From IMG/VR virus record IMGVR_UViG_3300010970_000144, positions 5,591 through 69,590 of that record: a stretch of 64,000 nt of DNA; one strand, given 5' to 3'. Origin of the DNA: a virus. A program made the translations under genes and the position numbers. This document shows positions 5,888 to 62,589 of the stretch, piece after piece (the first letter of the stretch is position 1; each line of letters opens with the position of its first letter). The notes under the pieces are model-generated. The model searched no databases. It was not told where the DNA came from and was given only the letters and a program-made list of their open reading frames with translations.

Positions 5888-6010
5888 TTTTTTTATTTTA
5901 TTGTTTATAAATTGTTTCAACAAATATACTTAAAATTTAGTAATTTTTATTTTAAAAAAAAGTATTAAATTAATTAAATTAGTTCTACATTTGTATTAAA
6001 TTAATTAAAT

Positions 6011-35018: not shown

Positions 35019-38000
35019 GTGGCTGTACAAAATTTAATAACGGGAGAGTTCCAAATTCGTCAAGAAAATGGAGTTTTGGTAGCTGTGAACGGATTGGTTT
35101 CCGCAGATACTTCTGGTACTATTGGTACTTCGGGATCTAGCGGTTCATCTGGAACATCAGGATCTAGTGGTTCATCTGGTATTTCTGGTTCTTCGGGTAG
35201 CACCGGTACAAGCGGATCTTCAGGTAGTTCTGGGACTTCGGGATTAAATGGCTCTTCAGGCACAAGTGGTAGTTCAGCGACTAGTGGCAGCTCAGGCACA
35301 TCTGGTACCACAGGTAGCAATGGGACATCGGGTACGTCTGGTACTACGGGGACCTCTGGTAGTTCAGGTACATCGGGTAGTTCTGGTACGTCAGGCACCA
35401 CTGGTACGTCAGGTACGTCAGCCACAAGTGGTACTTCAGGTACTTCGGGCAGCTCAGGTATAGATGGCACATCGGGTACTTCAGGAAGCTCAGCAACTTC
35501 TGGTTCTTCTGGGACTTCTGGTTCATCGGGAAGTTCAGGTAGTTCTGGGGCGAATGGTAGTAATGGCACTTCGGGTACTTCAGGAATTGATGGTACTTCT
35601 GGAAGCTCAGGCAGCTCTGGATTAGATGGAAGCAACGGCACTTCAGGTACATCGGGAATAAATGGCACATCGGGGATAGACGGCACTTCAGGTTCATCAG
35701 GTTCTTCGGGAAGCTCTGGTTCTTCAGGTACGTCTGCTATAGATGGTACGTCTGGTTCTTCGGGTACATCTGGAACTTCAGCAACAAGCGGCACTTCAGG
35801 TACTTCTGCGACAAGCGGCACTTCTGGTACGTCAGCTACATCAGGTACTTCTGGAACTTCAGGATATTCTGGAGATAAATATTACACAACGTCAACATCA
35901 ACCTTTACTCTTGGTAATGCAGGAACTATAACAGTTGGTACAGGGTTAGCCTATTCGGTAGCTCAATCAATTATTGTGGTTTATGATGCAAACAACTTCC
36001 AAGAGTGTGAGGTTATTTCATATAACTCAGGAACCGGAGCATTGCAGTTTGCTGCTCCAGTAAGAACAGTTGGTTCCGGAACATATTCATCATGGACAAT
36101 AAACTTAGATGGTGCTAGTGGAGGCGATGGATCAAGCGGTACGTCAGGAACTTCAGGTGTTAGCGGTACGTCAGGAACTACAGGCACATCAGGTTCCTCA
36201 GGTACAACTGGAACATCGGGCAGTTCAGGTTCTTCGGGTTCAAGTGGGACTTCGGGAACGTCAGGACGTAATGGTATAGATGGTTCTTCAGGAGCTTCTA
36301 TTGCCAACTGGTATGGTTCTTTTTCTAGTTCTTTAACACAAACTGTTACAGCTGCTAATACCCCTACTGTAATTACTTATAATACAGTAGAGATTTCAAA
36401 TGGTACAACTATCAGTGGTTCGCAAATTGGTTATCAGCATGCTGGTATCTATGAAATTGGTTATTCTTTACAAGTAGAGAAAACTCAAGGTGGTGGTGCT
36501 GCTGACGTTGAAATTTGGTTAAAGAAAAATGGTTCTGATATTTTAAGAACAGATTCAATTTTAGGTTTATCTTCTAATAGTATAAAGCAGCTTCCATTCG
36601 TTTCAATAATGTTGGAACTTGCTGCTAATGATTATTTAGAAATATATTTTGCATCTGACAGTGACCATGTTCAAGTAACAGCGGTTCCGGCTCAGACATC
36701 TCCTTATGTGGTTCCAGCAGCTCCATCTGTTATTGTAGTTACAAAGCAAGTTGGTATAGCTGTAGGTACAACATCTGGAACAAGCGGAAGCTCAGGAAGT
36801 TCAGGCACGTCTGGGACTGCGGGTACCTCTGGAAGTAGTGGTGTAAACGGCACATCTGGTACCTCTGGTAGTTCAGGAGTGAGCGGTTCATCTGGTTCTT
36901 CTGGAAGTTCGGGTACGACTGGTACATCAGGTACGACTGGTACGTCCGGCACATCAGGATTTAACGGAACATCTGGTTCATCTGGTACTACTGGAACTTC
37001 AGGTTCATCGGGTACAAATGGAACGGGGGGTACGTCAGGAACTAGTGGTAGTACGGGTACGTCTGGCACATCTGGTACTACGGGTACGTCAGGTTCAAGC
37101 GGTACGAGTGGCAGTTCGGGTACGTCTGGTACGACAGGTACGAGTGGGACATCTGCTGTAAATGGTACTTCAGGATCATCAGGCACGTCTGGGACATCTG
37201 CTACTTCTGGTACAAGTGGATTTACCCCTACCAACCAAGTAACCGGTACAGGTACTACTAACTACCTACCTAAGTTTACAGGTACAAGTACAATAGGTAA
37301 TAGTATTATTCAAGACGCTTCTACTTATATTGATGTAGCAGGTTATGCCTTTTTAAGAAGAGGTGGAAAATATTTATTATTAAATCCTAATTATGCTGGA
37401 ACAACTGTTTATGCAGATATTTCTGCCGAAGCAGGAATGGGTTTATCGTTATCAGCTAATGGGGTAACTAAACAATTATATATTGACACTTCAGGCAATT
37501 TAGGTTTAGGAGTAACACCAAGTGCGTGGGGTTCAACAGTTAGAGTATTACAATTTGAGAATGGCGGAAGCATAGCATCAAACCAATCTACGCAAGTATC
37601 GTTTAACAATAACGTTTATTCTGTTCCGGGTACAAATGACTACTATATTTCAAGTGCATTTGCAAGTAGATATATTCAATTTCAAGGTCAACATATTTGG
37701 TCAACCGCTCCTTCAGGAACGGCAGGTAACGCTATCAGCTTTACACAAGCTATGACGTTAAACGCTTCAGGTAACTTATCCATTGGTAATACTAATGATA
37801 CTTATAAACTTGATGTGAGTGGAACGGGTATATTTAGAGGAGCATTAACTATAAGTGGACCTTCTCCTTTAAAATTCAAATATTCAGATAACTATGACTA
37901 TTATGGAATAGGATATATTTCAGGTGCTGATTATGGTTTTTATAACTATAACTATGGCAGAACAGATTTATTATTTACGCAATCAACAGGTGCAGCTACA

Positions 38001-39665
38001 TTTAGTTCATCGGTTACGGCAGGGGGTAAAATATTTACTTCTGCAAGTGTAAATGATAATATTATTGAAGTAATTAATAGCGATACTACAAACGGATATG
38101 GTCTTTATGTAAGGGGTGGCGGTACTGCTTCAAATAGATATGTAGCAAGATTTAAGAACGGTGCTGACTCTGATGTAATGTGGGTTGGAACTTCTAACGT
38201 AGGTATAGGAACTACAAGTCCGGGCGGTAAATTACATATTGCAGGAGATGGAGATGCCTCTAACTTAATAAGGCTACAACATACAGGAACAGGCGGTAAT
38301 GGTTATTTTGATATTAACGTTAATAGTACGGCAGCAAGTTTAGTAGCTAATTATAGTTCAACTGCAATACCAATGTTATTTTTAACAGGCGCTACCGAAC
38401 GTATGAGAATAACAAGCTCAGGAAACGTAGGTATAGGAACTACAAGTCCTTTCAATAAATTAACTGTTGCAAGTGTCCCTGATAGTGGATATGGTCTTAT
38501 AACTATTGCAACAAATTGGGGCAGTAATATTAGTACAGGAATAAAAATAGGTGCAGCAGGAGATAATGGGAGTTCTGGTGTTGATATAAGAGCGCATACA
38601 AATTATTCTGCAACAGGAGATACGCAAATGTCTTTTTGGACTAATGGGGCATCTTTAGCCGAACGTATGAGAATAACAAGCGGTGGTAGAGTTGGTATAG
38701 GAGTAACTGCACCATTGTCACAATTACAAACATCAGGAGATATAGAAGTAGGATATGTAAACTCTCTTAATAATGCAATGGTATTCAATTGGGGTGGTGC
38801 TTCTGCTCACGGTTCAATACAAACTTATTCATCAAGTAATTTAGCATTACAGCCTTACGGTAATAAAGTAGGTATAGGTACTTTAACTCCTACAAGCCTT
38901 CTTGATGTTCAAGGTCCGAGTGGTAGTAATGGTTCTGTCTTATTGACCTTACAAAAAGCTGGTGGATTTGGAGGAACACAATTTTACCAATACTACAGTT
39001 CTTCAAGTGATTATGGAATAAACTTTGGTTTAAATGTATCAAATGCTACTGATGGGAGAGCAGGTATTATTATACGTTCAGATACTGGCGGTAATGGTAC
39101 TCTTGTATTTAATACTTCTTCTGCGGAACGTATGAGAATAACAAGCGGTGGGAATGTGGGTATAGGAACTACAGGAGCATCAAATGTTCGTTTATATGTA
39201 TTAGGTAGCGATACAACAAGTTCAAATTGGAGTTTATATTCTACTGACACAAATGGAAATATTCTTCTTGCTTCAAGAAATGACGGACTGATAGCAACAG
39301 GTACAAGAACATTATCTCCTTATAATTTAACAACAGGAACTGCTGCTAATTTAGTTGTAGATAATTTTGGATATTTATATCGTTCTACATCTTCATTAAA
39401 ATACAAGACCAATGTTCGTGATTATGATAAAGGATTAGATATTATCAATCAAATGCGACCTGTATATTACAATGGTAAAAATGATGGTAACACGCAATTT
39501 GCAGGCTTAATAGCGGAAGAAGTACACGATTTAGGTTTAACTGAATTTGTACAATATGCAAACGATGGGACCCCTGATGCATTATCTTATCCCAATATGG
39601 TTGCTTTATTAGTCAAAGGGATAAAGGAACTTAAAGCAGAATTAGACACATTAAAAAACAAATAA
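35019..39665 (+). CDS. long tail fibre with Gly-X-Y (GTS/GSS) collagen-like repeats and C-terminal peptidase S74 chaperone
   Basis: Three GTS/GSS tracts; ERMRITSxGNVGIGT repeats; SSLKYKTNV..GLIAEEV..LVKGIKELKAE. Confidence 0.9.
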   Translation: MAVQNLITGEFQIRQENGVLVAVNGLVSADTSGTIGTSGSSGSSGTSGSSGSSGISGSSGSTGTSGSSGSSGTSGLNGSSGTSGSSATSGSSGTSGTTGSNGTSGTSGTTGTSGSSGTSGSSGTSGTTGTSGTSATSGTSGTSGSSGIDGTSGTSGSSATSGSSGTSGSSGSSGSSGANGSNGTSGTSGIDGTSGSSGSSGLDGSNGTSGTSGINGTSGIDGTSGSSGSSGSSGSSGTSAIDGTSGSSGTSGTSATSGTSGTSATSGTSGTSATSGTSGTSGYSGDKYYTTSTSTFTLGNAGTITVGTGLAYSVAQSIIVVYDANNFQECEVISYNSGTGALQFAAPVRTVGSGTYSSWTINLDGASGGDGSSGTSGTSGVSGTSGTTGTSGSSGTTGTSGSSGSSGSSGTSGTSGRNGIDGSSGASIANWYGSFSSSLTQTVTAANTPTVITYNTVEISNGTTISGSQIGYQHAGIYEIGYSLQVEKTQGGGAADVEIWLKKNGSDILRTDSILGLSSNSIKQLPFVSIMLELAANDYLEIYFASDSDHVQVTAVPAQTSPYVVPAAPSVIVVTKQVGIAVGTTSGTSGSSGSSGTSGTAGTSGSSGVNGTSGTSGSSGVSGSSGSSGSSGTTGTSGTTGTSGTSGFNGTSGSSGTTGTSGSSGTNGTGGTSGTSGSTGTSGTSGTTGTSGSSGTSGSSGTSGTTGTSGTSAVNGTSGSSGTSGTSATSGTSGFTPTNQVTGTGTTNYLPKFTGTSTIGNSIIQDASTYIDVAGYAFLRRGGKYLLLNPNYAGTTVYADISAEAGMGLSLSANGVTKQLYIDTSGNLGLGVTPSAWGSTVRVLQFENGGSIASNQSTQVSFNNNVYSVPGTNDYYISSAFASRYIQFQGQHIWSTAPSGTAGNAISFTQAMTLNASGNLSIGNTNDTYKLDVSGTGIFRGALTISGPSPLKFKYSDNYDYYGIGYISGADYGFYNYNYGRTDLLFTQSTGAATFSSSVTAGGKIFTSASVNDNIIEVINSDTTNGYGLYVRGGGTASNRYVARFKNGADSDVMWVGTSNVGIGTTSPGGKLHIAGDGDASNLIRLQHTGTGGNGYFDINVNSTAASLVANYSSTAIPMLFLTGATERMRITSSGNVGIGTTSPFNKLTVASVPDSGYGLITIATNWGSNISTGIKIGAAGDNGSSGVDIRAHTNYSATGDTQMSFWTNGASLAERMRITSGGRVGIGVTAPLSQLQTSGDIEVGYVNSLNNAMVFNWGGASAHGSIQTYSSSNLALQPYGNKVGIGTLTPTSLLDVQGPSGSNGSVLLTLQKAGGFGGTQFYQYYSSSSDYGINFGLNVSNATDGRAGIIIRSDTGGNGTLVFNTSSAERMRITSGGNVGIGTTGASNVRLYVLGSDTTSSNWSLYSTDTNGNILLASRNDGLIATGTRTLSPYNLTTGTAANLVVDNFGYLYRSTSSLKYKTNVRDYDKGLDIINQMRPVYYNGKNDGNTQFAGLIAEEVHDLGLTEFVQYANDGTPDALSYPNMVALLVKGIKELKAELDTLKNK
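35115..37220 (+). repeat. Gly-Thr/Ser-Ser triplet repeats (about 35115-35873, 36111-36293, 36765-37220)
   Basis: Gly at every third residue; X/Y almost all Ser/Thr; codons diversified. Confidence 0.95.
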
Positions 39666-39677
39666 AATAAAACAAAA

Positions 39678-40058
39678 ATGGCAACAACAGTATTTGAATG
39701 GGTAATTTCGCAGCTTAATTGTGCAGTTGAATCAGAAGGTCTACCTGACGTTATCAATGTAATACATTGGAGATATAACGCAACCCAAGAGCATGATGGT
39801 AAAATTTATTTTGCAGACACTTATGGTTCATCAAGTGTAGCTCAACCGAATCCACAAAACTTTATTCCTTACGCAGATGTAACAGAAGCTGAAGTTATTG
39901 GCTGGTTGGAAGAAATATTGCCTGTAGAAGCTATGCAATTAGCTCTAGAGAACAATATCGCTCTTCAAATCAATCCGGTTGAGGTTACACTTCCATTACC
40001 ATGGATTTCAACTACAACTACCACAACTACGGCAGCTCCTACAACAACTGCTCCATAA
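39678..40058 (+). CDS. tail-fibre-associated protein with Thr-rich tail
   Basis: Follows the fibre; FIPYADVTEAEVIGW..LPLPW, then TTTTTTTTAAPTTTAP. Confidence 0.65.
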   Translation: MATTVFEWVISQLNCAVESEGLPDVINVIHWRYNATQEHDGKIYFADTYGSSSVAQPNPQNFIPYADVTEAEVIGWLEEILPVEAMQLALENNIALQINPVEVTLPLPWISTTTTTTTAAPTTTAP

Positions 40059-40109
40059 ATATTTTGTTTAATTAAATTAATTTATTAGTTTTGTTAAAAA
40101 TATATATTT

Positions 40110-40451
40110 ATGAAATCAATTGAACTAGTAGTAGCTAAAGAAAACATTGGTGGTAGAGATACCTTTTTAACCACTTATGATTTATTAAAATCAGCAATCA
40201 ATAATCCAACTCAAGGCGGATTTAATGTTGATGAAATGATCAAAAGACTCCGTATATTAGGAGAAGTTGAAAAGTACAAAGAGCTTTTTGAAATCAACCC
40301 AGAAGATTTTAAAGATGATTTTCTTGATAGAAAAGCCACTTTAGAATTAGAAGATGCTGATTTTACCAAGTTAAAAGAACTATTTAAAGAAATGAAATGG
40401 GGAGTGGTATCATCAACAATTGTAGAATTAAGCAAGCAATTGGATAAATAA
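40110..40451 (+). CDS. hypothetical protein (possible fibre assembly factor)
   Basis: ORF preceded by the 13-mer motif at 40068 and a TAGTTTTG box. Confidence 0.5.
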   Translation: MKSIELVVAKENIGGRDTFLTTYDLLKSAINNPTQGGFNVDEMIKRLRILGEVEKYKELFEINPEDFKDDFLDRKATLELEDADFTKLKELFKEMKWGVVSSTIVELSKQLDK

Positions 40452-40482
40452 GTTTCTGGTTTAGTGGTTTATAATAATAAAT

Positions 40483-40510
40483 TAAGCAGGCTGCGAACCT
40501 GCTTTTTTAT
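40483..40510. terminator. terminator between convergent units
   Basis: AAGCAGG-ctgcgaa-CCTGCTT followed by a T run. Confidence 0.7.
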
Positions 40511-41184
40511 TTAATATTATCAGCTATTTGTTTAAAATAATCAGGCAATTTATCGTAAGTGTATAAGTAACTATAATTATGTGGCCTTTTTTTTATGTTT
40601 CTTCTACATATTTTTAATTTTTTAGCCGCTTGCCTAAATGAATCATATTTAATTAGTTCATTTTCAGATATTTGGTAAATTTCTTTTCTTTTAGGAGAGC
40701 TTTTTATTAATTTTATTTTTACATTTTCTGGAGTAATAGCACCCTTCCTTTTATCAGATATTTTTTTTCTAACTTCCGGATTCTTCATTTTTTCGGTTAT
40801 TATTTTAACCATTTTTTCTCTTACTTCTTTTGAGTGTGTTTTACCAAACATGTAATTTTTCTCTCCTTTATGTTTGTTTCTTGTTTCTTCCGTAACTAAT
40901 ACACCTAATGCACCCTCTCCGCCATCAGTAAGATTGCATAATGGCCCTTCGTTTTTATTTGATCTTCCATAAAATGAAATTAAATATTTTTCAATGGATA
41001 GCGCTTCTTCGTAACATATATCTTTGTGCGTTATTTCTACCCTATACTCTGTATTTTTTACGATATTTCTCCAATATGAGTTTCTTCGTAGGTTGACCTC
41101 GTATGCCCTTTTTTCATTTCTGCCAACTCCTATGTAGAAAACATCATTAGTATCTAGTCTTATGTGTCTATAAACTATTGCCAT
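40507..41184 (-). mobile_element. GIY-YIG-like homing endonuclease with NUMOD3-type repeats
   Basis: IVYRH..FYIGVG..RA..E..NLTDGGEG; NYMFGKTHSKEVREKM. Confidence 0.8.
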
Positions 41185-43223
41185 TACAATAATTTTTGTA
41201 TTTCTTTAATAACCATTTCAGCATTTATTGATGTGTGACATTCAAAGTTTTTAGATCTGGGACACCAATCCCAATTTCCAGCATCTAGCCTATATTCTGA
41301 CCAACAATCATGGCATACTGATTTATTGACTATTCTGCTGCATTTTTGAGTAAATTCGTAATGCTCATTAGTAAAGTTGCTAATCATAACTACATGGGTT
41401 CCTAATCCAAAAGCCAACCAGCTTAGCCCTGAGCTTAAAGATACTTGAAATTTAGCATTTGCAATTATATTCATTGTATTTTCAATAGACGTATCTTCCA
41501 GTGGCTCGCAGTTGTCAAATGGGTTTTTCTCTTTTGAAACATTTATTACCTTGTACCCGTTTTCCGTAAGCCAATTTATAAGGATTTGCCAGTCGTGTCT
41601 TTGCCAGAACTTGCATTGAGCTGTGGAATTGGTCGCTATTGTCACATAGCTGCCCAAATTTGAGCTTTTTTTGTCGTACTTGAGTCTTGGTGCCACTTCT
41701 GTAAATTCAAGCCCCAAAATGTTGGTTGCTGCCTTTTGTAGTGGTATGGTATTCGGCTCTACTGGCTCTCTGTTTGAATCATAAAAATAACCAATCTTGT
41801 ACATAGCGTAACAGCTAACAGAAGTCCCCGGCTCCACTAATTCCAATTCCGGATAGTCCAGTATCTTATTCCAAAAAGTGGACACTATAACCTTACATTG
41901 ATGCTTTTTTCTAAATTCCTCACAATAACCAATCCAAGCCATTGTGTCCCCTAAACTTTTGCTTTCAAAGGCTATAAACACGCTTTTGCCATGCAGGTCT
42001 AATATGTTCTCGTATATTAGCTGCCCGTCTTGATATATGTACGTTTTCCATTTGGTATAGTATTGTCTATTAAGCCTTACCCAGCTATTGCTCTTGATTG
42101 TGTTTTGGTAATGGCACACATCATTTTCATCATAGAATCTAACATCAAAGTCGCTATCGCTTTCTCCTTTGATTTCAAGGAAAGGGTGGTTAATGAAGTT
42201 TTGTGTAATGCGGACATTCTGTACTTGTGCAGGGAGTTCTAGTATCTTTTCGTAGGCCTCCTGATGCTTCATTGCAAAGTGAATAGATTTGTTGTCCTTT
42301 GGTATTTTATACCAGCACATTAGCGTATGCAAATTTGTGTGTTCTATAGGTTCAATATAATCATCATACATTCCGGCATACTGCGGAAGATTCCGCGCAA
42401 CAATGGGCAGTCCATGTCCGATTGCCTCACGAAGCACTAATGGATTACATTCCCATGTAGAATTAAACATGAATATATCTGATGCTGTCATGAAGTTGTG
42501 AATATCAGTTCTTTCGCCCCATACCTTTACATTTGATGGTAGGTCCTGCATCAATGGTTCCCAATAGCTTTTGAAATTTCCGGCTTGATTGCCAACGAAG
42601 TGAAACATCATGTCAGGGTACTTACGGGCTATTTCAAGTCCTTCCCTTTGATTCTTGCCCGGAGTCCATAAGCCTACATTCAGTACATGCTTTTTGTTTC
42701 TATCAAATTTAAGTTCATCTTGACATATCGTTTGGAACTTTTTAAGGTTCTGTTCTTCTATTGGATAAAGTATTGTAACATACTTTGATTCCAAGTCTGC
42801 AAATGTTTCTTCATGGTATGGAGTACAAAAAGAAAATAAGTCTGGGTGAAATACTTTGCTATTCGGATCAAACGAGATGTCATGACATGTTTCTACTATT
42901 CTGTACTTTCTATCTGGGTTGTAAAGCTTCTTTATCATCTCCCTATCCAATCTTTCAGACATTTCATCTATATGGATTATATCGGGCTGGAAGTATTCTA
43001 TCACATCAAATAGCTCCATCTTATTCTCATAAAGGGTAGTAAAATTACTACCAATTAGTACCCTTATAGTGTTCCTTTGGACCACATAATCTAATCCATG
43101 GCACTGATACTCTACTACATAATATTGATTATCAGTGTGGTTTCTCATGCTCTCTAATCTCTTTAATACGAATTGAGGGCAGCCACCTGTACTAAGATGC
43201 GGAGTTAAAAATAATATTCTCAT
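41184..43223 (-). CDS. GT4 glycosyltransferase fused to Aah/TibC-like protein O-glycosyltransferase
   Basis: N-half: HLSTGG, NVG..KNQ, ECNPLVLREA; C-half: SLGDTMAW, LSSGLSWLA, VMISNFT, CHDCW..WCPR..FEC. Confidence 0.8.
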   Translation of the reverse strand: MRILFLTPHLSTGGCPQFVLKRLESMRNHTDNQYYVVEYQCHGLDYVVQRNTIRVLIGSNFTTLYENKMELFDVIEYFQPDIIHIDEMSERLDREMIKKLYNPDRKYRIVETCHDISFDPNSKVFHPDLFSFCTPYHEETFADLESKYVTILYPIEEQNLKKFQTICQDELKFDRNKKHVLNVGLWTPGKNQREGLEIARKYPDMMFHFVGNQAGNFKSYWEPLMQDLPSNVKVWGERTDIHNFMTASDIFMFNSTWECNPLVLREAIGHGLPIVARNLPQYAGMYDDYIEPIEHTNLHTLMCWYKIPKDNKSIHFAMKHQEAYEKILELPAQVQNVRITQNFINHPFLEIKGESDSDFDVRFYDENDVCHYQNTIKSNSWVRLNRQYYTKWKTYIYQDGQLIYENILDLHGKSVFIAFESKSLGDTMAWIGYCEEFRKKHQCKVIVSTFWNKILDYPELELVEPGTSVSCYAMYKIGYFYDSNREPVEPNTIPLQKAATNILGLEFTEVAPRLKYDKKSSNLGSYVTIATNSTAQCKFWQRHDWQILINWLTENGYKVINVSKEKNPFDNCEPLEDTSIENTMNIIANAKFQVSLSSGLSWLAFGLGTHVVMISNFTNEHYEFTQKCSRIVNKSVCHDCWSEYRLDAGNWDWCPRSKNFECHTSINAEMVIKEIQKLL

Positions 43224-43235
43224 AGGTTAATTGAT

Positions 43236-43538
43236 TTAATATCTTTCAAAAAGGAATCTACCAACAAATGGGTGGATTTTAACCATTCCATATTTTTCTA
43301 TAATTTTTACAACATCATCAGATCGTAATGATTGATGTAAATTTTTGACTATCTCTCTGAATGATTCTAAATCATTATCTTTTTTTAAATTTTGACAATC
43401 TTCGCAAATAGGCATCAGGTTTTCAAATTCCATTGATTCAGGTTGCATTTGGTCAACTTTAACTTCTTCTATGGTAATTCTTTGGCCACAATAAGCACAA
43501 AGACCATCATATTTTTCGTATATTTTTTCTATGTTCAT
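43236..43538 (-). CDS. degenerate HNH-like zinc-finger protein
   Basis: CAYCG..VDQMQP..NLMPICEDCQ; catalytic DH and CN residues replaced. Confidence 0.6.
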   Translation of the reverse strand: MNIEKIYEKYDGLCAYCGQRITIEEVKVDQMQPESMEFENLMPICEDCQNLKKDNDLESFREIVKNLHQSLRSDDVVKIIEKYGMVKIHPFVGRFLFERY

Positions 43539-43541
43539 AGG

Positions 43542-44888
43542 TTATTGGTTTATAAATTCTTTAATCTTTTCAATGTTCTTTTCTCCATGATAAAATAGCA
43601 AATGCTCTTTATGTGAAGGTACTTTAATCCATGGCCCTATTAGATTATCGTGACCAGTAAATTCAAGTTCTTTATGTAACCCATTGATGTAGCAGTATGG
43701 CAAGCCTCCAAAAGCCATTCGCTTATATAGTAACGCTTGTAATACGGTTTCTTCGTGGAAGGGTGCATAGTGGTTATGGTTCTTTAAGATTTTAGGGTGG
43801 TTGCACATCCAGTGCCATTCCTCTAAGAAATCAATAGTATTTTGCCCTGCTACATAATATCCTGTTTGCCTGTACCTGTTGCGTACATACTGGTTAATGT
43901 TGAATAGTTCACAAGCCGGAGCTTCCAATGTAGTGCTTAAATCCGTCCTACTTTCAGCGCCACCTCTACCATTAACCATAAGGTATTCATATATACCCTC
44001 TGTAAAAAATGGGTAGCTTGATTCATCATTATAGAAAGTAAAGATATTGTCAACGTATGGACTAGCCACAGAATCAGAGTCAACGTAAGCAATCGTTTCT
44101 GCATAGTTTTCAAGTGCGTGTTTGGTTATTAAAGGTCTTTGTATAAGTAATTTGTAAATGCTTTTATTGGATCTATCAATGTATTCGGACCTTTGTTTCA
44201 GGTGCTTCACATCACAATCCCATCTAATTGTTTTGGTATTTTCTATGTCGGTAATCTTCTTATCAGAGTTTAGCATGTAAACTAATATTGGTACTTCACT
44301 GAACTTACGGATAGATTCAGCGCATACTTGGACCAAATCAAAATAAGATTCATCAGCGTACAATAGGTAGGCTTTCTCATGCTTCTGGGTTCTGTTTACA
44401 TAGTAGCCATAATACTGGTTAGCGTAAAGTAATTGTAGTTCTGGGTATCTAGTTTCCATCACTGCCGGAGTCAAGTCAGGCTGCAAATGTGCTTCATGGA
44501 CGTTACCTTCATGCTCTCCCTGTTCCATAAGGTATGGTACTGCCACTAGACATTGCTTACCGCTATTGACTATCTTTTTGATGATACTTTGTGCATCTTC
44601 CACAGACAAATGTTCAAGCACATCACCCATGATAATAAACTCGTAATAGTCAAAATGGAAACCAACTACGCTCTGTATGAATACGTTGTTGTACTTCTTA
44701 TCTAATTGATAGTTAACTACATAAGGTTCGTATATCTCTACGCAATCCATGTAGTAGCCATAGTTTTTTAGCATATCAGCATAGGTGCCAATACCAGCCC
44801 CCACATCTAATATCTTTTTGTTTATGTCTACATTGTCTACTATGTAATCTCTTACCTCTTGTTTGAAAAATTGAAAGCTGGTTGGCAT
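43542..44888 (-). CDS. class I SAM methyltransferase fused to GT-A glycosyltransferase
   Basis: ILDVGAGIG, GDVLEHL; C-half YVDSDSV (DxD), QTGYYV, HEET, LFYHGEK. Confidence 0.75.
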   Translation of the reverse strand: MPTSFQFFKQEVRDYIVDNVDINKKILDVGAGIGTYADMLKNYGYYMDCVEIYEPYVVNYQLDKKYNNVFIQSVVGFHFDYYEFIIMGDVLEHLSVEDAQSIIKKIVNSGKQCLVAVPYLMEQGEHEGNVHEAHLQPDLTPAVMETRYPELQLLYANQYYGYYVNRTQKHEKAYLLYADESYFDLVQVCAESIRKFSEVPILVYMLNSDKKITDIENTKTIRWDCDVKHLKQRSEYIDRSNKSIYKLLIQRPLITKHALENYAETIAYVDSDSVASPYVDNIFTFYNDESSYPFFTEGIYEYLMVNGRGGAESRTDLSTTLEAPACELFNINQYVRNRYRQTGYYVAGQNTIDFLEEWHWMCNHPKILKNHNHYAPFHEETVLQALLYKRMAFGGLPYCYINGLHKELEFTGHDNLIGPWIKVPSHKEHLLFYHGEKNIEKIKEFINQ

Positions 44889-44958
44889 AAAATTAATTTA
44901 ATTAAGCAAAAGTAATTAATTTAATTAAATAAATATATCTTTGCCTAAAATAATTATT

Positions 44959-45336
44959 ATGAAAATAGAAGTAAGCATTGGCGAGATAGCCGATAAGTAC
45001 ACCATCTTAACCATCAAATCATTTGAAATTTTAGACGAGGAAAAGCAAGCCAACATTAAAAAGGAATGGAAGTACATTAACCAAGTAATCAAAGAGAACT
45101 TTAAGGAGTTGGCATCAGACAAGCTAACGCATAGGCTTCTGGATATAAACAGGCAGCTATGGGTGGTAGAAGATTCGCTACGAGATTGCGAAAATGACAG
45201 GGATTTTGATAAGCTATTTGTCTTTTTGGCAAGACAGGTTTATAGACTAAATGACCAGAGAGCAGCCATCAAGAAAGAAATTAACATTAAGTACAAGTCC
45301 GACATCATAGAGGAGAAGTCATATAACGCATATTAA
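44959..45336 (+). CDS. DUF6165-like protein (glycosyltransferase-associated)
   Basis: IEVSIGEIADKYTIL.IK..LWVVEDSLR..VYRLNDQRAAIKKEIN..EEKSY; start revised to ATG at 44959. Confidence 0.75.
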   Translation: MKIEVSIGEIADKYTILTIKSFEILDEEKQANIKKEWKYINQVIKENFKELASDKLTHRLLDINRQLWVVEDSLRDCENDRDFDKLFVFLARQVYRLNDQRAAIKKEINIKYKSDIIEEKSYNAY

Positions 45337-45383
45337 TTTATAAAATACGGCAGAATTTGGCAGAAAAAAGTTATTTTTGATAG

Positions 45384-45821
45384 ATGAATAGACTCGCTAT
45401 CATAATGATTTTTTTCTGTAGCTGCGCTTCGGTTAAGAAAACCGAGAGGAGAATGGACAGCACAGTAACCAGATCCATTGATAGCGTGAGAGTTACGTTC
45501 TATGACAGCGTTACAAAGGTAATAGAAAAAGAACAATACTTTACTAAAACAATAACATACTACGATACCCTATGGGTAACCAAAGATAGTATGATAACCA
45601 TTCCAAAGTATACAGAAACTTGGACTTCTGGCAGCCGCGAGAAGCAATCTGAATCCAAGTTAACCAAAAAAGATTCTGCCAATATTTCAAAGGCGGAAGA
45701 AATCACAAAAACCATAGTTGAAAAAGATAAGAAGAAAATGGCCAATAACTTTTATAAGTTCTTGTTCTTTATTCTTATTGCCCTATTTGTTATTTACATT
45801 TATACCAAAGTAAAAAAATGA
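45384..45821 (+). CDS. lipoprotein with C-terminal TM helix (unimolecular-spanin architecture)
   Basis: Lipobox FFCSC; C-terminal FLFFILIALFVIYIY; first gene of the lysis cluster. Confidence 0.55.
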   Translation: MNRLAIIMIFFCSCASVKKTERRMDSTVTRSIDSVRVTFYDSVTKVIEKEQYFTKTITYYDTLWVTKDSMITIPKYTETWTSGSREKQSESKLTKKDSANISKAEEITKTIVEKDKKKMANNFYKFLFFILIALFVIYIYTKVKK

Positions 45822-45900
45822 AACGTATAAATCATAATATCAAGGGGTATGTATTAGCTATTGTTTACGTTATTATTGTACTCTTAATATCATTATTTAT

Positions 45901-46161
45901 ATGAAAAAATTATTCAATTGGGTAGCAGGATTCTTTTCGGCAGATAGCCCAAATTCAAGCAAAAGATTAGTAGGTATTGTTGGTGCCGGTTTCTTATACT
46001 GGACACTTTATTCAAATTCACATAGCGAAAGTCATGTAGTTCCAGCCGAATCATTAGTATGGGGTACTGTAACTTTAGTATGTACTTCTTTAGGATTAGC
46101 TTCTGTAAAGGAGATAGGAGATTTAATTGGAAACTTTAAAGGCAACAAAACATCTGAATAA
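45901..46161 (+). CDS. putative holin
   Basis: SSKRLVG motif followed by two TM helices. Confidence 0.6.
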   Translation: MKKLFNWVAGFFSADSPNSSKRLVGIVGAGFLYWTLYSNSHSESHVVPAESLVWGTVTLVCTSLGLASVKEIGDLIGNFKGNKTSE

Positions 46162-46164
46162 AAA

Positions 46165-46425
46165 ATGGAAGCAACTATTGAAAAGCAAGTTGAACAAACG
46201 TGGCACTCAAAAGCTTCGTTAGTTATTTTACTTCTAACAATTTTAGGAGGCTACTATGGTCTTACCGGAAAGTTTGAAGATGATGGTAAAAAGTATGAAA
46301 ACCATGAAGTCCGTATCGGTCAGTTAGAAGCTGATAAGAAAGAGATGAGAGATGACATCAAAGACATCAAGAAAACCAATGAGCAGATTCTAATATTATT
46401 ACAAAATAAAGCAGATCGTAAATAA
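46165..46425 (+). CDS. single-TM coiled-coil lysis protein (holin/spanin-like)
   Basis: TM helix followed by coiled coil. Confidence 0.5.
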   Translation: MEATIEKQVEQTWHSKASLVILLLTILGGYYGLTGKFEDDGKKYENHEVRIGQLEADKKEMRDDIKDIKKTNEQILILLQNKADRK

Positions 46426-46718
46426 TGGCAAAGGCAGTAAGAAAAAAAGCGGAAGAGTCGGAAGGCTTAAAGATAGGTGCTAATCCTTTACCTATTTCAT
46501 TTAAAGAGTTTAGCAAGAATCCAGTTGTTGGCATGTTATTTTTATGCATCTGCGGTATCAGTTACTTGTATATGGACAACGCAAAGCGTAACGAAAAGCA
46601 AGACGAAAAGATAGGCGCTTTGTACGAAATGGTGCGCAAAAGCGATAGCAGTAATGCAGCAAGCACGGCTCGTTTAGAAATGGCAGTAGACCTAAAAGCT
46701 CTTAAAAAATTCAAGTAA
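46425..46718 (+). CDS. single-TM membrane protein in lysis cluster
   Basis: NPVVGMLFLCICGISYLY TM helix plus coiled coil. Confidence 0.5.
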   Translation: MAKAVRKKAEESEGLKIGANPLPISFKEFSKNPVVGMLFLCICGISYLYMDNAKRNEKQDEKIGALYEMVRKSDSSNAASTARLEMAVDLKALKKFK

Positions 46719-47008
46719 TGCGTTATTTGATATTCATAGCTTTGTTAGGTTGTGGCACCAAAGCAGATAACCAAATCAAAGAGTTGCAAGACAAAGTAGA
46801 ACAAAGCCAAGTGCAGAGTGTAGCGGTGCAAGGCGTGGCTTCTGAAGATAATAAAAAGGTAATAACTAAAACAGTGAAAACGATAGTTACCTTAAAAGAA
46901 GAAGTTAAAGAATTAAAAACAGAACTAAATGAAGTTAAAGCTAAATTGGATTCTGCTAATTCTGTTGATACTAATAGCACCAAGTTTCAGCTCCGCCCAA
47001 TACGTTAA
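46718..47008 (+). CDS. lipoprotein, spanin-like
   Basis: Lipobox LLGC followed by coiled coil. Confidence 0.55.
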   Translation: MRYLIFIALLGCGTKADNQIKELQDKVEQSQVQSVAVQGVASEDNKKVITKTVKTIVTLKEEVKELKTELNEVKAKLDSANSVDTNSTKFQLRPIR

Positions 47009-47369
47009 GAAGATAGGTGGCGAAGATAAGATTGTTATTAGCCGAACAGAAGGCGAGAAGATTAACAACTCTTTTGATAGCCTGACTAATTTAGTGGGTT
47101 ACCAAAACTCACGCATTGATAGTTTAATCAAAGCTAACATCAAGACAAGAGATAGCCTTCGCATTGATTTATTTGTGGTAAGAGATAGTTTAAGCACACG
47201 CAATAAAATAGCAAACGATACGTTAAACGACTATCGCAATAGATACTATAAAAATATAGCCATTTACGAGAAGTACGAAAAGGCAGTAGATTTTGAAATA
47301 AAACTACATAGGCTTAATTCTGTTTTGTTTGCTATGCTAACTTTATTTCTATACTCTCAAATAAATTAA
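46929..47369 (+). CDS. secreted/membrane coiled-coil protein, spanin-like
   Basis: Signal peptide and C-terminal hydrophobic helix; overlaps the lipoprotein gene. Confidence 0.5.
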   Translation: MKLKLNWILLILLILIAPSFSSAQYVKKIGGEDKIVISRTEGEKINNSFDSLTNLVGYQNSRIDSLIKANIKTRDSLRIDLFVVRDSLSTRNKIANDTLNDYRNRYYKNIAIYEKYEKAVDFEIKLHRLNSVLFAMLTLFLYSQIN

Positions 47370-47370
47370 A

Positions 47371-47970
47371 ATGAAATTAGACGCGTTATCTAAAAAAATA
47401 CCAGCAAACGTAATGGAGGAAATACCTCTGATAATGGAGAAATTTGGAATAGATGGCCCATTAAGATTATCTCATTTCCTTTCTCAATGCGCTCATGAAA
47501 GCGGTAACTTTAAGTTTGTAAAAGAAAACTTGAACTACTCTGCTGATGGGCTTCGTAAGATTTTCCCTAAATATTTCCCAACTTTAGAAGCAGCAGAAAA
47601 ATATGCAAGACAACCTGAAAAAATTGCCAACAAAGTTTATGGTAACCGCATGGGTAATGGTGATGAAGCTAGTGGAGATGGTTTTAAATTCAGAGGTCGT
47701 GGTTATATCCAGCTTACTGGTAAGGATAATTACGCAGCGTTTGATAAATTCGTAGATGATGATATTATGGCTAATCCTGATTTAGTGGCTACCAAATATC
47801 CACTTACTTCAGCAGCCTTCTTCTTCCATAAGAATAATCTATGGGACGTGTGCGATAAAGGACATAGCCATGATGTAGTAGTGGCAGTAACAAAGCGTGT
47901 GAACGGAGGGACTCATGGTCTTGATGATAGAAAGGATAAATTTAATGTATTTCATAGTACACTAGCATAA
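47371..47970 (+). CDS. GH19 family endolysin
   Basis: HFLSQCAHESG, FRGRGYIQLTGKDNY, TKRVNGGTHGLDDR. Confidence 0.95.
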   Translation: MKLDALSKKIPANVMEEIPLIMEKFGIDGPLRLSHFLSQCAHESGNFKFVKENLNYSADGLRKIFPKYFPTLEAAEKYARQPEKIANKVYGNRMGNGDEASGDGFKFRGRGYIQLTGKDNYAAFDKFVDDDIMANPDLVATKYPLTSAAFFFHKNNLWDVCDKGHSHDVVVAVTKRVNGGTHGLDDRKDKFNVFHSTLA

Positions 47971-48968
47971 TGCCAAATCAACACACAGGTCCAACAGTAA
48001 AGAATAAAGCAATTAGAGAGCTTTTATTAGAGTTCCCTAATAGTTCTAAATCTAATTTAGGGAAGATAGCTTTTGAAAGGCATCCTCATTTGTTTGATAA
48101 TCCAGAATCTGCTAGAATGATGATTAGGCAGATAACTGGAGCTGCTGGGATAAGAAATAAAAAAATAACAAGAAACATAATGGAACACAATCCGCAGCTA
48201 CCTCCTTCAAATTGTAAGGAAAGAGAGTTTCAGGTTTTGCCCAAAGAGTGTAATAACATTCTTTGGCTTTCTGATGTTCACATACCTAACCAAGACAATG
48301 AAGCTATTGAATTAGCCGTTGAGTATGGTAAGAAGAATGATGTCAATTGCATTGTTCTGGGAGGTGATATATTGGATAACACTCCATTTACAAGCCATGA
48401 TGCGCCACCGCCGGGCCTAGATGATGTTAGAACGTGGTTCCAGTATGCAAAACAATTTATAGAATATCTAAAATATCAATTCCCAAAAGCTAAATTCTAT
48501 TGGATTGAGGGTAATCATGATGCGTGGATTAAGCGATACTTAATAAAAAAAGCTCCAATCTTATTTAGTGATGAGTATTACCACCTGCCACAAAGAATGA
48601 AGCTTGATGAGTTAGGTGTAAAGTTCTTTGCGGAGCATGTAGTTTTAATGGCCGGCAAGTTACAGATGCATCATGGACATACAATGATTCGTGGGGTATT
48701 TGCCCCAGTAAACGCAGCAAGAGGATTGTTCTTACGCGTTAAATCAAATGCAATCATAGGTCATGTCCATACCACCAGCCATCACGTTGAAAAGACATTG
48801 AAGGGAGAAACAATTGGCACATGGTCGGTAGGTTGTCTTTGTACACTGGCTCCTGATTATGATCCACATGGCACAAAGCACAATTTAGGCTTTGCCCATA
48901 TTTTAGTAGAAAAGAATGGTAACTTTAAAGTTAACAATATAGCTATTCATGAAGGAAGAATCATCTAA
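47970..48968 (+). CDS. calcineurin-like metallophosphoesterase
   Basis: SDVHIP, GGDILD, EGNHD, HGH, GHVH. Confidence 0.9.
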   Translation: MPNQHTGPTVKNKAIRELLLEFPNSSKSNLGKIAFERHPHLFDNPESARMMIRQITGAAGIRNKKITRNIMEHNPQLPPSNCKEREFQVLPKECNNILWLSDVHIPNQDNEAIELAVEYGKKNDVNCIVLGGDILDNTPFTSHDAPPPGLDDVRTWFQYAKQFIEYLKYQFPKAKFYWIEGNHDAWIKRYLIKKAPILFSDEYYHLPQRMKLDELGVKFFAEHVVLMAGKLQMHHGHTMIRGVFAPVNAARGLFLRVKSNAIIGHVHTTSHHVEKTLKGETIGTWSVGCLCTLAPDYDPHGTKHNLGFAHILVEKNGNFKVNNIAIHEGRII

Positions 48969-49170
48969 GGTAAACCACCCAGCACATTATAACGTAGGAA
49001 AAATTGAGTGTATAGACGCAATTGACGAAGCAGTAAAAGGATTAGATGGTAAAGAAGCATTTGCTACTGGCAATGCCATAAAGTATTTGTGGAGGTGGAA
49101 ACGTAAAGGAGGGAAGGAAGATTTAAAAAAGGCAGTTTGGTATATTAACAGACTAATAAATGAGGACTAA
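48949..49170 (+). CDS. DUF3310 protein (T7 gp1.7-like nucleotide kinase family)
   Basis: VNHPAHY..ECIDAI..GNAIKYLWR..EDLKKAVWY. Confidence 0.9.
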   Translation: MKEESSKVNHPAHYNVGKIECIDAIDEAVKGLDGKEAFATGNAIKYLWRWKRKGGKEDLKKAVWYINRLINED

Positions 49171-49526
49171 TGAAACTAACATCTACACTGAAAATATCTA
49201 CCTATGGTTGCAAGGTGGTACTTATTATTACAGATTCATTAATCAATGAAGCTAATAAAGTATACAAAAAGCATAAAATGGAACAGATGTTTGAAGGAGA
49301 TGCAGAAGGTACAGTTATAACCCCAGACATAGATGTCTATTACATGATTATAGAGCAAAAGTATTTAAGCCACAATACCCTATCACATGAAAATTATCAC
49401 ATAGTAAATGTAATAAAAAGTGACAGAGGTATTGTAGATGATGAAGCTGGAGCATGGCTGTCAGGTCACATAGCTGAGTTTATCTACAAATTCATAGACA
49501 AGAAGCAGCTAATAGTTAAGCACTAA
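49170..49526 (+). CDS. HExxH protein
   Basis: TLSHENYH..DEAGAWL. Confidence 0.55.
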   Translation: MKLTSTLKISTYGCKVVLIITDSLINEANKVYKKHKMEQMFEGDAEGTVITPDIDVYYMIIEQKYLSHNTLSHENYHIVNVIKSDRGIVDDEAGAWLSGHIAEFIYKFIDKKQLIVKH

Positions 49527-49595
49527 TACATAGCCAATATTCCAAAAAATAATTTTTTAATTTAATTAACTCGGTTAACTTTGGAAAAAAAATAC

Positions 49596-50519
49596 ATGAA
49601 ATTAAGGTTCATTTGCGCTCAACCAACCTCACTTTATTATGCATGGCAAGTAGAAGTTATGATTAATAACTTTATTGAAATGGGTATCAACCCCAACATG
49701 ATTGATATTGTTTGCTGGAAGATTAACAATGTGATACCTGAAGAATGGGCCAAGCTCGCGGCTAATTATCCAGCTCGTTTCTTTTTTTATGATGATACCA
49801 GACAAAGCAGACACTACATATCCTCAATACGTCCAAACATATTAAAGCAGCATTTTGAAGCAAATGATTTGAATGGTGAAGCTATTCTTTATCACGATTG
49901 CGACATTGCGTTTACAAAGAAAATAGATTGGGAGCAGTTCTTACAAGATGATAAGTGGTACGGATCTGATTGCCGTTGGTACATAGCACATAGCTACATA
50001 TTAGGCAAAGGCCAAGACGTAATAGATAAGATGTGTGAGATAGTTGATATACCAGAATCACTGGTGAAAGACAATGAACTAAACTCAATCGGCGCGCAGT
50101 ACCTGATGAAAGGTATTGATGCACAGTTTTGGGCGGACGTTGAAAGAGATTGCGAAAGACTATTCCATGAAGTAACTCAACTTAATAACGAAAAGAAACA
50201 AGCAGATGCAACTCATCATGAATTACAGATATGGTGCGACATGTGGGCGGTGCTATGGAATGGCTGGAAACGTGGAGCAGAAACCATTTGTCACCCAGAA
50301 CTAGAATTTTCATGGGGGACAAGTACCGAAGCGGATTGGGATAGATTAAGTATCTTCCACAATGCTGGTGTAACTACCTCAACTGGTGGCTTATTCTACA
50401 AAGCAGAATACATGAACCAGTTGCCCTATAGTGCAACATTAAATATAAATGAAGGTACGGCCAGTAAAAAATATTGGGATATTATACAAGAAACAGCAAA
50501 AAAATCAGTTCTATTATGA
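49596..50519 (+). CDS. GT-A glycosyltransferase resembling peptide O-glycosyltransferases (GT95/GT96-like)
   Basis: YYAWQVEVM, YISSIRP, LYHDCDIAF (DxD), IGAQYLM, IWCDMWA, IFHNAG; start revised to ATG at 49596. Confidence 0.65.
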   Translation: MKLRFICAQPTSLYYAWQVEVMINNFIEMGINPNMIDIVCWKINNVIPEEWAKLAANYPARFFFYDDTRQSRHYISSIRPNILKQHFEANDLNGEAILYHDCDIAFTKKIDWEQFLQDDKWYGSDCRWYIAHSYILGKGQDVIDKMCEIVDIPESLVKDNELNSIGAQYLMKGIDAQFWADVERDCERLFHEVTQLNNEKKQADATHHELQIWCDMWAVLWNGWKRGAETICHPELEFSWGTSTEADWDRLSIFHNAGVTTSTGGLFYKAEYMNQLPYSATLNINEGTASKKYWDIIQETAKKSVLL

Positions 50520-51388
50520 AAGTAATTAAGGCCACATACGGAGGAGTAGATTGTACAGATGTGATAAGTAAAAAGGTGGTAGGCAACCAGCTTATAGTTA
50601 GATCTAATAATGATATAATCGGAGATACTGCCGTTGGTCAGGTGAAATTTTTAGAAGTAGAGCTATTAACTGATAAGGGGACTTTATTAAAGAGTATTGC
50701 AGAAGGTGGTATATTAGTGTTCCCTGAATCTAAAGTAAAGAAATTGGGCATATTCTATTCCAACAACAATAACAAAAAGATATGGCCTTCAATCTACCGA
50801 TCGTTAAATACTATTAAGCAAGCAAGCGAGGGGGTAGCAGACATTGTAACTTGTATGTGGGAGCCTATGCCGGAAAACCCATTCTATCAAGTTAGAAGCT
50901 GGTATCAGTCGCAGTCGCACCTCAATCAGTTGCTCCAAATTATGCAGTGTCTTTATGCAGCCAAAGAAACCGGCGAATATGATTACGTTTCCTTTTTAGA
51001 ACATGATGTAATGTACCCAAAGGGTTACTTTGACTTTCCTGAATTTGCAAGAGGTAACGTGCTTACCAATATGAATTATGGGGGTGTTTGCATTAATGGG
51101 TGGCAAGAGAGAGGTCAAGATGATGAGCCGTTCCACCAAATGACCATGAGATTTGAAGATGCCATTAGCCACTGCTTAGCCATTTTACCTAATGCTTTGC
51201 GTACAAATAGCGGAATGATTGAAACTCAAACAATGAAACGGATCCAATGGAATAGCGAAAATCAGGCTATCCATATCAACCATGGAATACATTTTACCAG
51301 CCATAATTCAATATATCGCAAAGATAATTTATCTTTAACTCATAATTACTGGGGCAACCATTCCGATTATACCAATTTATTCGTATGA
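50516..51388 (+). CDS. lectin-like N-terminal domain fused to GT-A-like domain
   Basis: IKATYGG..DCTD..GDTAVGQVKFLEV (SUEL/DUF3395-like); VSFLEHDVMYP; start revised to ATG at 50516. Confidence 0.6.
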   Translation: MKVIKATYGGVDCTDVISKKVVGNQLIVRSNNDIIGDTAVGQVKFLEVELLTDKGTLLKSIAEGGILVFPESKVKKLGIFYSNNNNKKIWPSIYRSLNTIKQASEGVADIVTCMWEPMPENPFYQVRSWYQSQSHLNQLLQIMQCLYAAKETGEYDYVSFLEHDVMYPKGYFDFPEFARGNVLTNMNYGGVCINGWQERGQDDEPFHQMTMRFEDAISHCLAILPNALRTNSGMIETQTMKRIQWNSENQAIHINHGIHFTSHNSIYRKDNLSLTHNYWGNHSDYTNLFV

Positions 51389-62138: not shown

Positions 62139-62589
62139 TTGTTTTTTGTTGTGGGTTGCCCCGTGTTAGTTAATAAGACGCAATCTAATACGCTTTTTTG
62201 TAAATTAGAACAACCAAATGATCATTTAAGAAAACTTTAACAAATGGTTATTTTATATAATATGATCCCCCCCCTACTACCCCCCTACATAAAACAAGAG
62301 CAAACCACACGCCACACCACAACCAGCAACGCAACAAATTGCAAGACCAAAACCAAAGCCCACAACCCACCGAAAACCGCACCACACACCACACGCAAAG
62401 AAACTGCAAGGGAAAACGCAAAAGCGAGGTACTGGGTGCAAGAAAATCAAAACCCCGAAAAAATAAAAACTTTTTTGGAGCGGGGGGGTAGCTTAAACAA
62501 ATGTTTATGCAGAGGGTTTGAAATTTTTTTTTTGTAATATGGAATGGAAATGGTGAAAATATGGTATATTTGGGTATAAAAACATAGCT
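62139..62589. other. non-coding strand-switch region (candidate terminus/packaging/control region)
   Basis: Divergent transcription; A/C-skewed stretch; CTACCCCCC/GGGGGGTAG inverted repeat; TATATTTG box near 62565. Confidence 0.5.

Follow-up and report, generated by a model that had tools for sequence, protein, structure and literature searches.

The window analysed here, a DNA stretch of 64,000 nucleotides, comprises bases 5591-69590 of the 69,590-bp IMG/VR record IMGVR_UViG_3300010970_000144, which is rated complete by CheckV and has a G+C content of about 33%. An initial annotation had proposed that this viral genome encodes a glycosylation system for its own virion, consisting of four glycosyltransferase (GT) genes and of Ser/Thr tracts on structural proteins (Table 1). 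All four GT genes proved to be open frames at the positions proposed, with GT domains recognisable by sequence or by fold, and together they encode five GT domains and one S-adenosylmethionine (SAM) methyltransferase. They lie, as had been described, downstream of the tail fibre gene and around the lysis genes, represented by a GH19 endolysin, and the DUF6165-like gene named alongside them was also found. The two minus-strand GT genes are referred to below as the module.

Family scans of the open reading frames (ORFs) of the window revealed terminase, portal and virion proteins of a tailed phage. The terminase shared 28-29% identity with the terminases of podophages of Flavobacterium and Cellulophaga, and because the genome also encodes a Bacteroides-type (BT4734-type) primase and a protein resembling the crAssphage muzzle, it likely belongs to a podovirus-like phage of Bacteroidota. 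A DNA search of cultured phages with the module gave no match; the phage is itself uncultured and is without a close cultured relative.

Table 1. Genes of the window discussed in the text, in window coordinates (aa, amino acids; pLDDT, predicted local distance difference test score)
Feature	Position	Strand	Remarks
Two-domain glycosyltransferase, 679 aa	41184..43223	-	N-terminal GT4 (GT-B), C-terminal TibC/Aah-type (bacterial autotransporter heptosyltransferase, BAHT) protein O-glycosyltransferase domain
Class I SAM methyltransferase (aa 1-167) and GT-A glycosyltransferase (aa 168-448), 448 aa	43542..44888	-	Model pLDDT 80
Soluble, putatively GT-A-like enzyme, phrog_4417 family	49596..50519	+	H100-D101-C102-D103 motif; proposed poly-Thr O-glycosyltransferase
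GT-A-fold protein with N-terminal beta domain	50516..51388	+	Proposed accessory or extending transferase
Tail fibre, 1548 aa	35019..39665	+	Tail-fibre PHROGs; proposed acceptor of the TibC-type module
1304-aa virion protein	18331..22245	+	phrog_14478 "virion structural protein", 4.1e-55; proposed acceptor
DUF7936 protein, 126 aa	39678..40058	+	Pfam DUF7936 2.1e-25; C-terminal STTTTTTT-AAP-TTT; proposed acceptor of the 49596-50519 enzyme
121-aa protein	5558..5923	-	C-terminal T9-AAP-T6; no family match; possible acceptor
DUF6165 protein	44941..45336	+	Pfam E 1.2e-9; divergent from the module
GH19 endolysin	47371-47970
HNH homing endonuclease	34505-35017		Beside the fibre gene
NUMOD1/NUMOD3 homing endonuclease	40507..41184	-	Selfish insert adjoining the module, no part in the proposed mechanism
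HNH endonuclease	43236..43538	-	phrog_2118 1.5e-15; between the two module genes

In the 679-aa product of the module, Pfam Glycos_transf_1 matched aa 170-284 (41.1 bits against a cut-off of 26.4), corresponding to the GT4 domain, and NCBIfam TIGR04414 (hepto_Aah_TibC) matched aa 357-678 with 212.6 bits, above its curated cut-off of 200. A search of PDB with this protein matched TibC (4rap) with an E value of 3.5e-37. The alignment placed the catalytic base of TibC, Asp-110, opposite the D of an SLGD motif (LGD in TibC, with A in the D110A entry 4rb4); the sugar-binding residues Thr-226, Lys-230 and Trp-305 were aligned and identical, and the four iron-finger cysteines (339, 342, 358 and 370) coincided with the cysteines of C-x-x-C, WCP and FEC motifs. 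The position of Pro-300 in TibC is occupied by Ser, as in AAH. The roles assigned to Asp-110, Thr-226, Lys-230, Arg-286, Trp-305 and the iron-finger cysteines are those given in the available part of PMC4358343.

The second module gene encodes a methyltransferase fused to a GT. Its methyltransferase half (aa 1-168 in the comparison) showed fold Z scores of 15.3-13 to many SAM methyltransferases, with G30, G32 and G34 of the G-x-G-x-G SAM loop invariant, and Pfam Methyltransf_23 scored 24.3, below its cut-off of 27. Its nearest cultured relative was gp145 of Mycobacterium phage Phrappuccino (34% identical), the gene for which is sited after three GT genes. The GT-A domain showed fold Z scores of 16.2 to WbbM, 16.1 to BoGT6a, 15.8 to LgtC and 15.6 to glycogenin, followed by Skp1 galactosyltransferase and GlyE (down to 14.9) and by A64R of chlorovirus PBCV-1 (13.8), while Foldseek ranked GT6 enzymes first (E 1e-8); D270-x-D272 of this domain was invariant.

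The product of 49596-50519 belongs to phrog_4417 (E 6.9e-60), a family labelled "unknown function" in PHROG, and gave no Pfam match even at an E value of 10. Its ESM Atlas model (predicted TM-score 0.93) aligned with a cluster, 44% of whose members carry PF23452, at a TM-score of 0.78. Within the family D101 and D103 were invariant, and the H-D-x-D motif was invariant or nearly so across 33-92% identity. The family comprises 1020 clusters at 50% identity, and 9 of 22 long members scanned carry a second recognised GT domain (GT6, GT2, GT32, Glyco_transf_7C, GT29 or, weakly, GT25). Some members (P0372, P0400) were fused to a domain of the radical SAM/SPASM or of the GT29 sialyltransferase-like type.

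The start of the next gene, 50516-51388, overlaps the stop of the phrog_4417 gene by 4 bases. Its product was assigned to no family by sequence; the model (pLDDT 86.8) showed a GT-A fold over aa 73-287, with Z scores of 13.6-12.2 to GT2-type enzymes, and nucleotidyltransferases fitted it nearly as well (Z about 12). E162-H163-D164 was invariant, and an Atlas search returned weak leads to GT2 and GT6 clusters (0.85 and 0.84). Profile-profile comparison among the three GT-A-like proteins was uninformative, with probabilities of 8%, 0.5% and 0.2%, and PDB sequence searches with the phrog_4417 protein and with the methyltransferase-GT fusion gave no usable match. No segment of the four GT proteins was hydrophobic enough to span a membrane.

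Since phage GTs are classically DNA-modifying according to the available text of PMC12619734, the enzymes could conceivably glycosylate hydroxymethylated bases of the phage DNA and so evade restriction; the genome does invest in anti-restriction, encoding ArdA and a C5 DNA methylase. Scans of the ORFs of the window and of the 5.6 kb of the record outside it, among whose matches were ligase and RusA, revealed, however, no thymidylate-synthase-like hydroxymethylase or other DNA-hypermodification enzyme. The TibC family is moreover a family of protein transferases, and modification of DNA would not explain the co-variation of the enzymes with protein tracts described below, so that we regard this alternative as highly improbable.

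The tracts that the initial annotation had assigned to four probable structural proteins are real in all four, whereas structural status is supported for only two of them, the fibre and the 1304-aa protein. The GTS repeats of the fibre, noted there as low-complexity sequence, are present as collagen triple-helix repeats: Pfam Collagen scored 173.7 bits against a cut-off of 27.2 (6e-52, 9 stretches), far above chance. These collagen-like G-S/T-S/T repeats form three blocks, followed by a C-terminal Peptidase_S74 intramolecular chaperone (4.3e-6). There is no autotransporter gene in the genome; the collagen-like fibre adjoins the TibC-type gene instead.

The other three proteins carry Thr runs, located at 5561-5620 (minus strand), 21784-21975 (plus strand) and 40008-40031 (plus strand), and share the motif T(n)-AAP-T(n). 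In the 1304-aa protein, the only one of the three with a "virion structural" PHROG match, the run forms a 66-residue Thr-rich linker (aa ~1151-1216) that precedes a small C-terminal domain. The ORF following this gene (22270-22815) gave matches to the C-terminus of the crAssphage muzzle protein (crAss_MUZ 1e-6, crAss_MUZ_C 1.2e-4), which hints that the 1304-aa protein may be muzzle-like.

To relate the module to collagen-like fibres, 80 viral module loci were collected using the protein encoded by 43542-44888. The two module genes were adjacent in every locus where both matched, in 65-kb and in ~110-kb phages, and the DUF6165 gene adjoined the module in many of these loci. The GT-A domain sometimes occurred without the methyltransferase, and in three other phages it lay in one ORF with the TibC-type domain, which ties both window genes to one pathway. 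In 42 of the 46 loci having at least 6 kb downstream, G-S/T-S/T runs occurred in an ORF there, at a median distance of 2.2 kb. As conserved gene order could explain this result, a scan unbiased by the module was made. The pattern (GGNWSNWSN)7GG yielded at least 49 contigs in which (G-S/T-S/T)7 fell within an ORF of 300 aa or longer, and 45 contigs could be searched. Among the matches listed, the TibC-type domain occurred in 17 of these 45 contigs (E at most 3e-24, 31-66% identity) and in 4 of the 5 that were at least 90% complete, compared with 1/35 contigs selected for acidic tracts (a 548-kb phage) and 1/40 selected for poly-Thr (a marginal match with an internal stop). Fisher p values, likewise for matches listed, were 8e-8 for strong matches and 5e-7 with the marginal one included, a significance inflated by kinship between contigs. 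The TibC-positive ORFs ranged from 113 aa (at a contig end) to 1527 aa, on contigs of 10-299 kb.

A TibC-type domain was also seen in Microcystis phage Mel-JY01 (PP395634), where it forms the C-terminus of a 1226-aa "methyltransferase FkbM" (3460-7140) and is 35% identical. That gene follows a Ser-rich "structural protein" without collagen-like sequence; a frame rich in G-X-Y at this locus overlaps genes already annotated.

An alternative target for the enzymes would be host envelope glycans (lipopolysaccharide (LPS), capsule or teichoic-acid-like polymers), modified for instance in superinfection block or in release, with the tracts acting as flexible linkers. Enzymes for LPS and capsule usually adopt GT4, GT9-like and GT8/GT6-like folds, the module's GT-A domain has WbbM and LgtC among its best fold matches, and weak RfaC and heptosyltransferase I matches were found on the TibC-type domain. 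The RfaC match, however, reached 21.8 bits, compared with the score above cut-off for the protein-glycosylating family; the four GT proteins have no membrane segments, and no integrase, Wzx/Wzy/GtrA flippase-type partner or lipid-carrier enzyme turned up in family scans of the window and the 5.6 kb outside it. Because an envelope target would also leave unexplained that each enzyme family tracks its own type of tract, we consider it quite unlikely.

The phrog_4417 enzyme was related to poly-Thr in three ways. In the first, a scan of IMG/VR with (ACN)12 gave at least 125 stretches, from which 80 loci were fetched; in 46 contigs not from giant viruses, Thr12 fell within an ORF of 150 aa or longer, and 40 of these contigs could be searched. 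The acidic-tract control was obtained by the same procedure with (GAN)12 (35 contigs searchable, 15 chosen contigs not). Among the matches listed, the phrog_4417 family occurred in 8 of the 40 poly-Thr contigs, 38-62% identical to the window protein and in 7 of the 8 within ~1.2 kb of the Thr run, and it occurred in 0/35 acidic-tract and 1/45 collagen-type contigs (Fisher p 6e-4 for 8/40 versus 1/80 among these matches, again inflated by contig kinship). In long ORFs, pure Thr runs, often punctuated as T(n)-AAP-T(n) or T(n)-PP, recurred across many unrelated viral contigs (L092-L171).

The second comparison covered the window and 14 related genomes of 61-69 kb, each scanned whole (n=15). All 12 gene-positive genomes, the window included, had 3-7 Thr-tract ORFs with 63-191 tract residues in total, and the three gene-negative relatives, two of them rated 100% complete, were without Thr tracts apart from one TTSTTT inside a collagen fibre. 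The three absences correspond to three changes on the TerL tree. Orthologs of the 1304-aa protein had the Thr-rich linker in 11 of the 12 enzyme-positive and in none of the 3 enzyme-negative genomes; the DUF7936 ortholog of an enzyme-negative relative had a C-terminus without a Thr run, and orthologs of the 121-aa protein with a Thr tail were found in relatives. The gene at 50516-51388 was absent from three enzyme-positive relatives that retain Thr tracts and is therefore accessory.

The third comparison concerned cultured phages. The phrog_4417 family was found in 75 records of cultured phages, for the most part phages of Enterococcus, Lactobacillus, Staphylococcus and Lactococcus. In Enterococcus phage phiFL1A (NC_013646; 3345-4909), the C-terminus of the major tail protein, gp50, is a Ser/Thr run of 23 residues, nearly all Thr, and the gene directly after that for gp50, gp51 ("hypothetical"), is a phrog_4417 member inserted ahead of the genes for the tail chaperones. 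In homologous phages of Streptococcus and Lactobacillus, both the Thr-run tail and the phrog_4417 gene are missing. Seven records with homologous major tail proteins were each searched over the whole record. The gene was present in two, phiFL1A and Lacticaseibacillus phage R3.3, the only ones whose tail protein has a terminal Thr run of at least 6 residues, and absent from the five without such a run (p 0.048). The co-occurrence of tracts and GTs across relatives, which the initial annotation had singled out as the point to check, was thus borne out for both enzyme families: in neither the contig scans nor the related genomes were they independently distributed.

Such coupling might be real without being that of an enzyme to its substrate, if the genes were co-inherited as mobile cassettes or if the phrog_4417 family served poly-Thr proteins in a non-catalytic way, for instance as a chaperone. 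In keeping with a hitch-hiking cassette, the enzyme gene mostly lies directly beside the tract gene, and Pfam shows no GT family in the window protein or in 10 relatives. In the window, by contrast, a distance of 9.5 to 44 kb separates the enzyme gene from the three Thr-tract genes, and presence and absence are still matched genome-wide, and the tract proteins have tract-free orthologs in enzyme-free relatives, which points to a tag gained or lost and not to a cassette. A non-catalytic role fits poorly with the conservation of H-D-x-D across the family and with the fusion of family members to recognised GT domains. Overall, this alternative appears unlikely.

We therefore favour the reading that two independent kits probably O-glycosylate the phage's own particle proteins. 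The initial proposal that phage GTs act on Ser/Thr tracts of the same phage came through the comparative analysis in altered form, as two enzyme-acceptor pairs and not as one pathway. The enzymes are soluble and their coupling to the tracts is both statistical and phylogenetic; if that coupling is one of enzyme to substrate, glycosylation would take place in the host cytoplasm, before or during assembly, and the glycans would end up on the virion. In the first kit, the phrog_4417 enzyme would add a sugar to Thr residues of poly-Thr tags, that is, of the T(n)-AAP-T(n) linkers or tails on the 1304-aa virion protein, the DUF7936 protein and the 121-aa protein, and the translationally coupled GT-A protein would probably add a further sugar. 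In the second kit, the TibC/Aah-type domain would attach a sugar to Ser or Thr of the collagen-like repeats of the fibre, encoded 1.5 kb away; the fused GT4 domain and the GT-A domain of the neighbouring gene would extend the glycan, and the SAM methyltransferase fused to the latter would methylate it. The order of these steps and the role of the methyltransferase are guesses drawn from analogy. The sugar donors would most likely be made by the host, since no nucleotide-sugar synthesis gene was present among the scanned ORFs of the window and the 5.6 kb outside it, in line with what the initial annotation had noted.

Several observations weigh against this reading. Arg-286 of TibC, which binds the sugar, aligns with Thr in the phage domain, and the donor may therefore not be ADP-heptose; no GmhA-like or other heptose pathway gene was found among the scanned ORFs of this genome, and a GmhA-like gene occurred in only 1 of the 45 collagen-type contigs (1 of the 17 TibC-positive ones), scoring 180 bits, below the cut-off of 209. 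LPS enzymes (WbbM, LgtC) match the module's GT-A domain as well as protein GTs do, so that its target is undecided from the fold alone. The GT-A-like nature of the phrog_4417 protein is suggested by an Atlas model, the DxD motif and domain fusions. Among the matches listed, 28 of the 45 collagen-type contigs were without the TibC-type domain and 32 of the 40 poly-Thr contigs without the phrog_4417 family; neither enzyme is thus required for such tracts, and other enzymes or no glycosylation may apply in those poly-Thr contigs. Two P366 orthologs in enzyme-positive genomes are without the Thr tail, and the TerL tree may differ from the history of other modules in mosaic phages. The contig samples (40, 45 and 35, with 6, 4 and 15 further contigs unsearchable) are modest, include many fragments and are partly related.

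In a wider reading, to which we give about an even chance, poly-Thr tails and G-S/T-S/T collagen repeats would be portable glycosylation tags, each read by its own soluble phage transferase family and gained or lost together with it. The phages concerned would differ widely, comprising aquatic crAss-like podophages, phages of 100-300 kb, and Enterococcus and Lactobacillus siphophages.

Other features of the genome were noted. Three homing-endonuclease genes (HNH, NUMOD1/3 and HNH) flank the fibre gene and split the glycosyltransferase module. A GroES-like co-chaperonin gene (17282-17554; phrog_3188, 1.8e-14) lies within the structural module, and a ferritin/rubrerythrin-like gene (29657-30157; Pfam Ferritin 9.5e-15) lies amid large tail genes. 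The C5 cytosine DNA methylase (4492-5106) has 204 aa and looks truncated, and the ArdA anti-restriction protein is encoded at 61602-62138 (9.6e-34). The ends of the record are exact 1730-bp inverted repeats (L225:1-1730 and window 62271-64000), either a real terminus or an assembly effect, which carry RusA-like and other small genes.

If the proposed pairings are correct, many environmental, gut or dairy phages would be glycan-coated, and virion glycosylation would be common in nature and not an oddity of mycobacteriophages. Such coats could influence how virions adsorb, how stable they are, whether they stick to mucus or particles and how immune systems recognise them, and would thus be relevant to phage therapy. 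The large "unknown function" family phrog_4417 would gain a function, and collagen-like fibres would become a new class of acceptor for the autotransporter heptosyltransferase family. Tag and enzyme together would form an orthogonal system for cytoplasmic protein O-glycosylation. Carriers already in culture with harmless hosts, among them Lacticaseibacillus phage R3.3, open the claim to direct testing.

To our knowledge, mycobacteriophages are the only phages for which glycosylation of the particle has been measured. Virion glycosylation in these phages is said to have been described by Freeman et al. in Cell Host Microbe in 2023. The glycans are located at the C-termini of capsid and tail-tube subunits, according to the available text of PMC12619734. 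The two cases are alike in that phage-encoded GT clusters modify, or here would modify, the phage's own virion proteins, a likeness that extends to the identity between the methyltransferase domain and Phrappuccino gp145. They differ in that the host here is probably a member of Bacteroidota, the enzymes are BAHT-like and of the phrog_4417 family, and the proposed acceptors are a collagen-like fibre and pure poly-Thr tags. That phage GTs can glycosylate virions is already known from mycobacteriophages, and both enzyme-acceptor pairings were found in no paper searched: in a literature search outside which most subscription journals and supplements lay, no paper was found that links a BAHT-type enzyme with collagen-like phage fibres or phrog_4417 with poly-Thr tags.

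The initial annotation had likened two of the GTs to protein O-glycosyltransferases. The likeness to TibC/Aah is upheld by TIGR04414 and 4rap, whereas the likeness to plant extensin enzymes (GT95/GT96) is a structural lead only. It consists of the Atlas model match to the cluster partly made up of PF23452, the plant HPAT (GT95) family, and both enzymes would act on extended low-complexity peptide stretches; the likely phage acceptor is Thr and not hydroxyproline, and the phage protein is soluble. As a candidate by sequence HPAT/GT95 was rejected, with no match for the window protein at E values up to 10, for 10 diverse relatives at E values up to 1, or for 22 long relatives at E values up to 0.001.

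Chlorovirus PBCV-1 also uses its own soluble GT-A enzymes for its capsid glycans, and its A64R (2P6W) is one of the structures that resemble the module's GT-A domain; PBCV-1 is, however, a eukaryotic virus with N-linked glycans, and the likeness is one of fold only. PBCV-1 A064R is a multi-domain protein that includes a methyltransferase domain.

Collagen-like proteins of bacterial surfaces offer a further comparison. BclA of Bacillus is a glycosylated collagen-like protein of the exosporium. In Clostridioides difficile, SgtA glycosylates Thr in the collagen-like exosporium protein BclA3, as stated in the available part of PMC7157674. As proposed for the phage, a dedicated GT there serves a collagen-like G-X-Y protein of bacterial type from which surface filaments are built, although the enzyme family is unrelated and the surface is that of a spore, not of a virion.

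The TibC-type domain shares its curated hidden Markov model family with TibC-TibA and Aah-AIDA-I of E. coli, the bacterial autotransporter heptosyltransferases (TIGR04414; 4RAP, 4RB4; eLife 2014, PMC4358343, in its available part). TibC is likewise a soluble cytoplasmic GT-B enzyme, which hyper-glycosylates Ser of a repetitive protein encoded nearby (same source). In contrast to TibC, the phage domain is fused behind a GT4 domain, is borne by a phage and does not conserve Arg-286. BAHT enzymes form a dodecameric ring and transfer heptose, whereas the phage domain is characterised here by sequence; and whereas the BAHT acceptor is the beta-helix passenger of the cognate autotransporter, the likely acceptor in the phage is a collagen-like triple-helix repeat.

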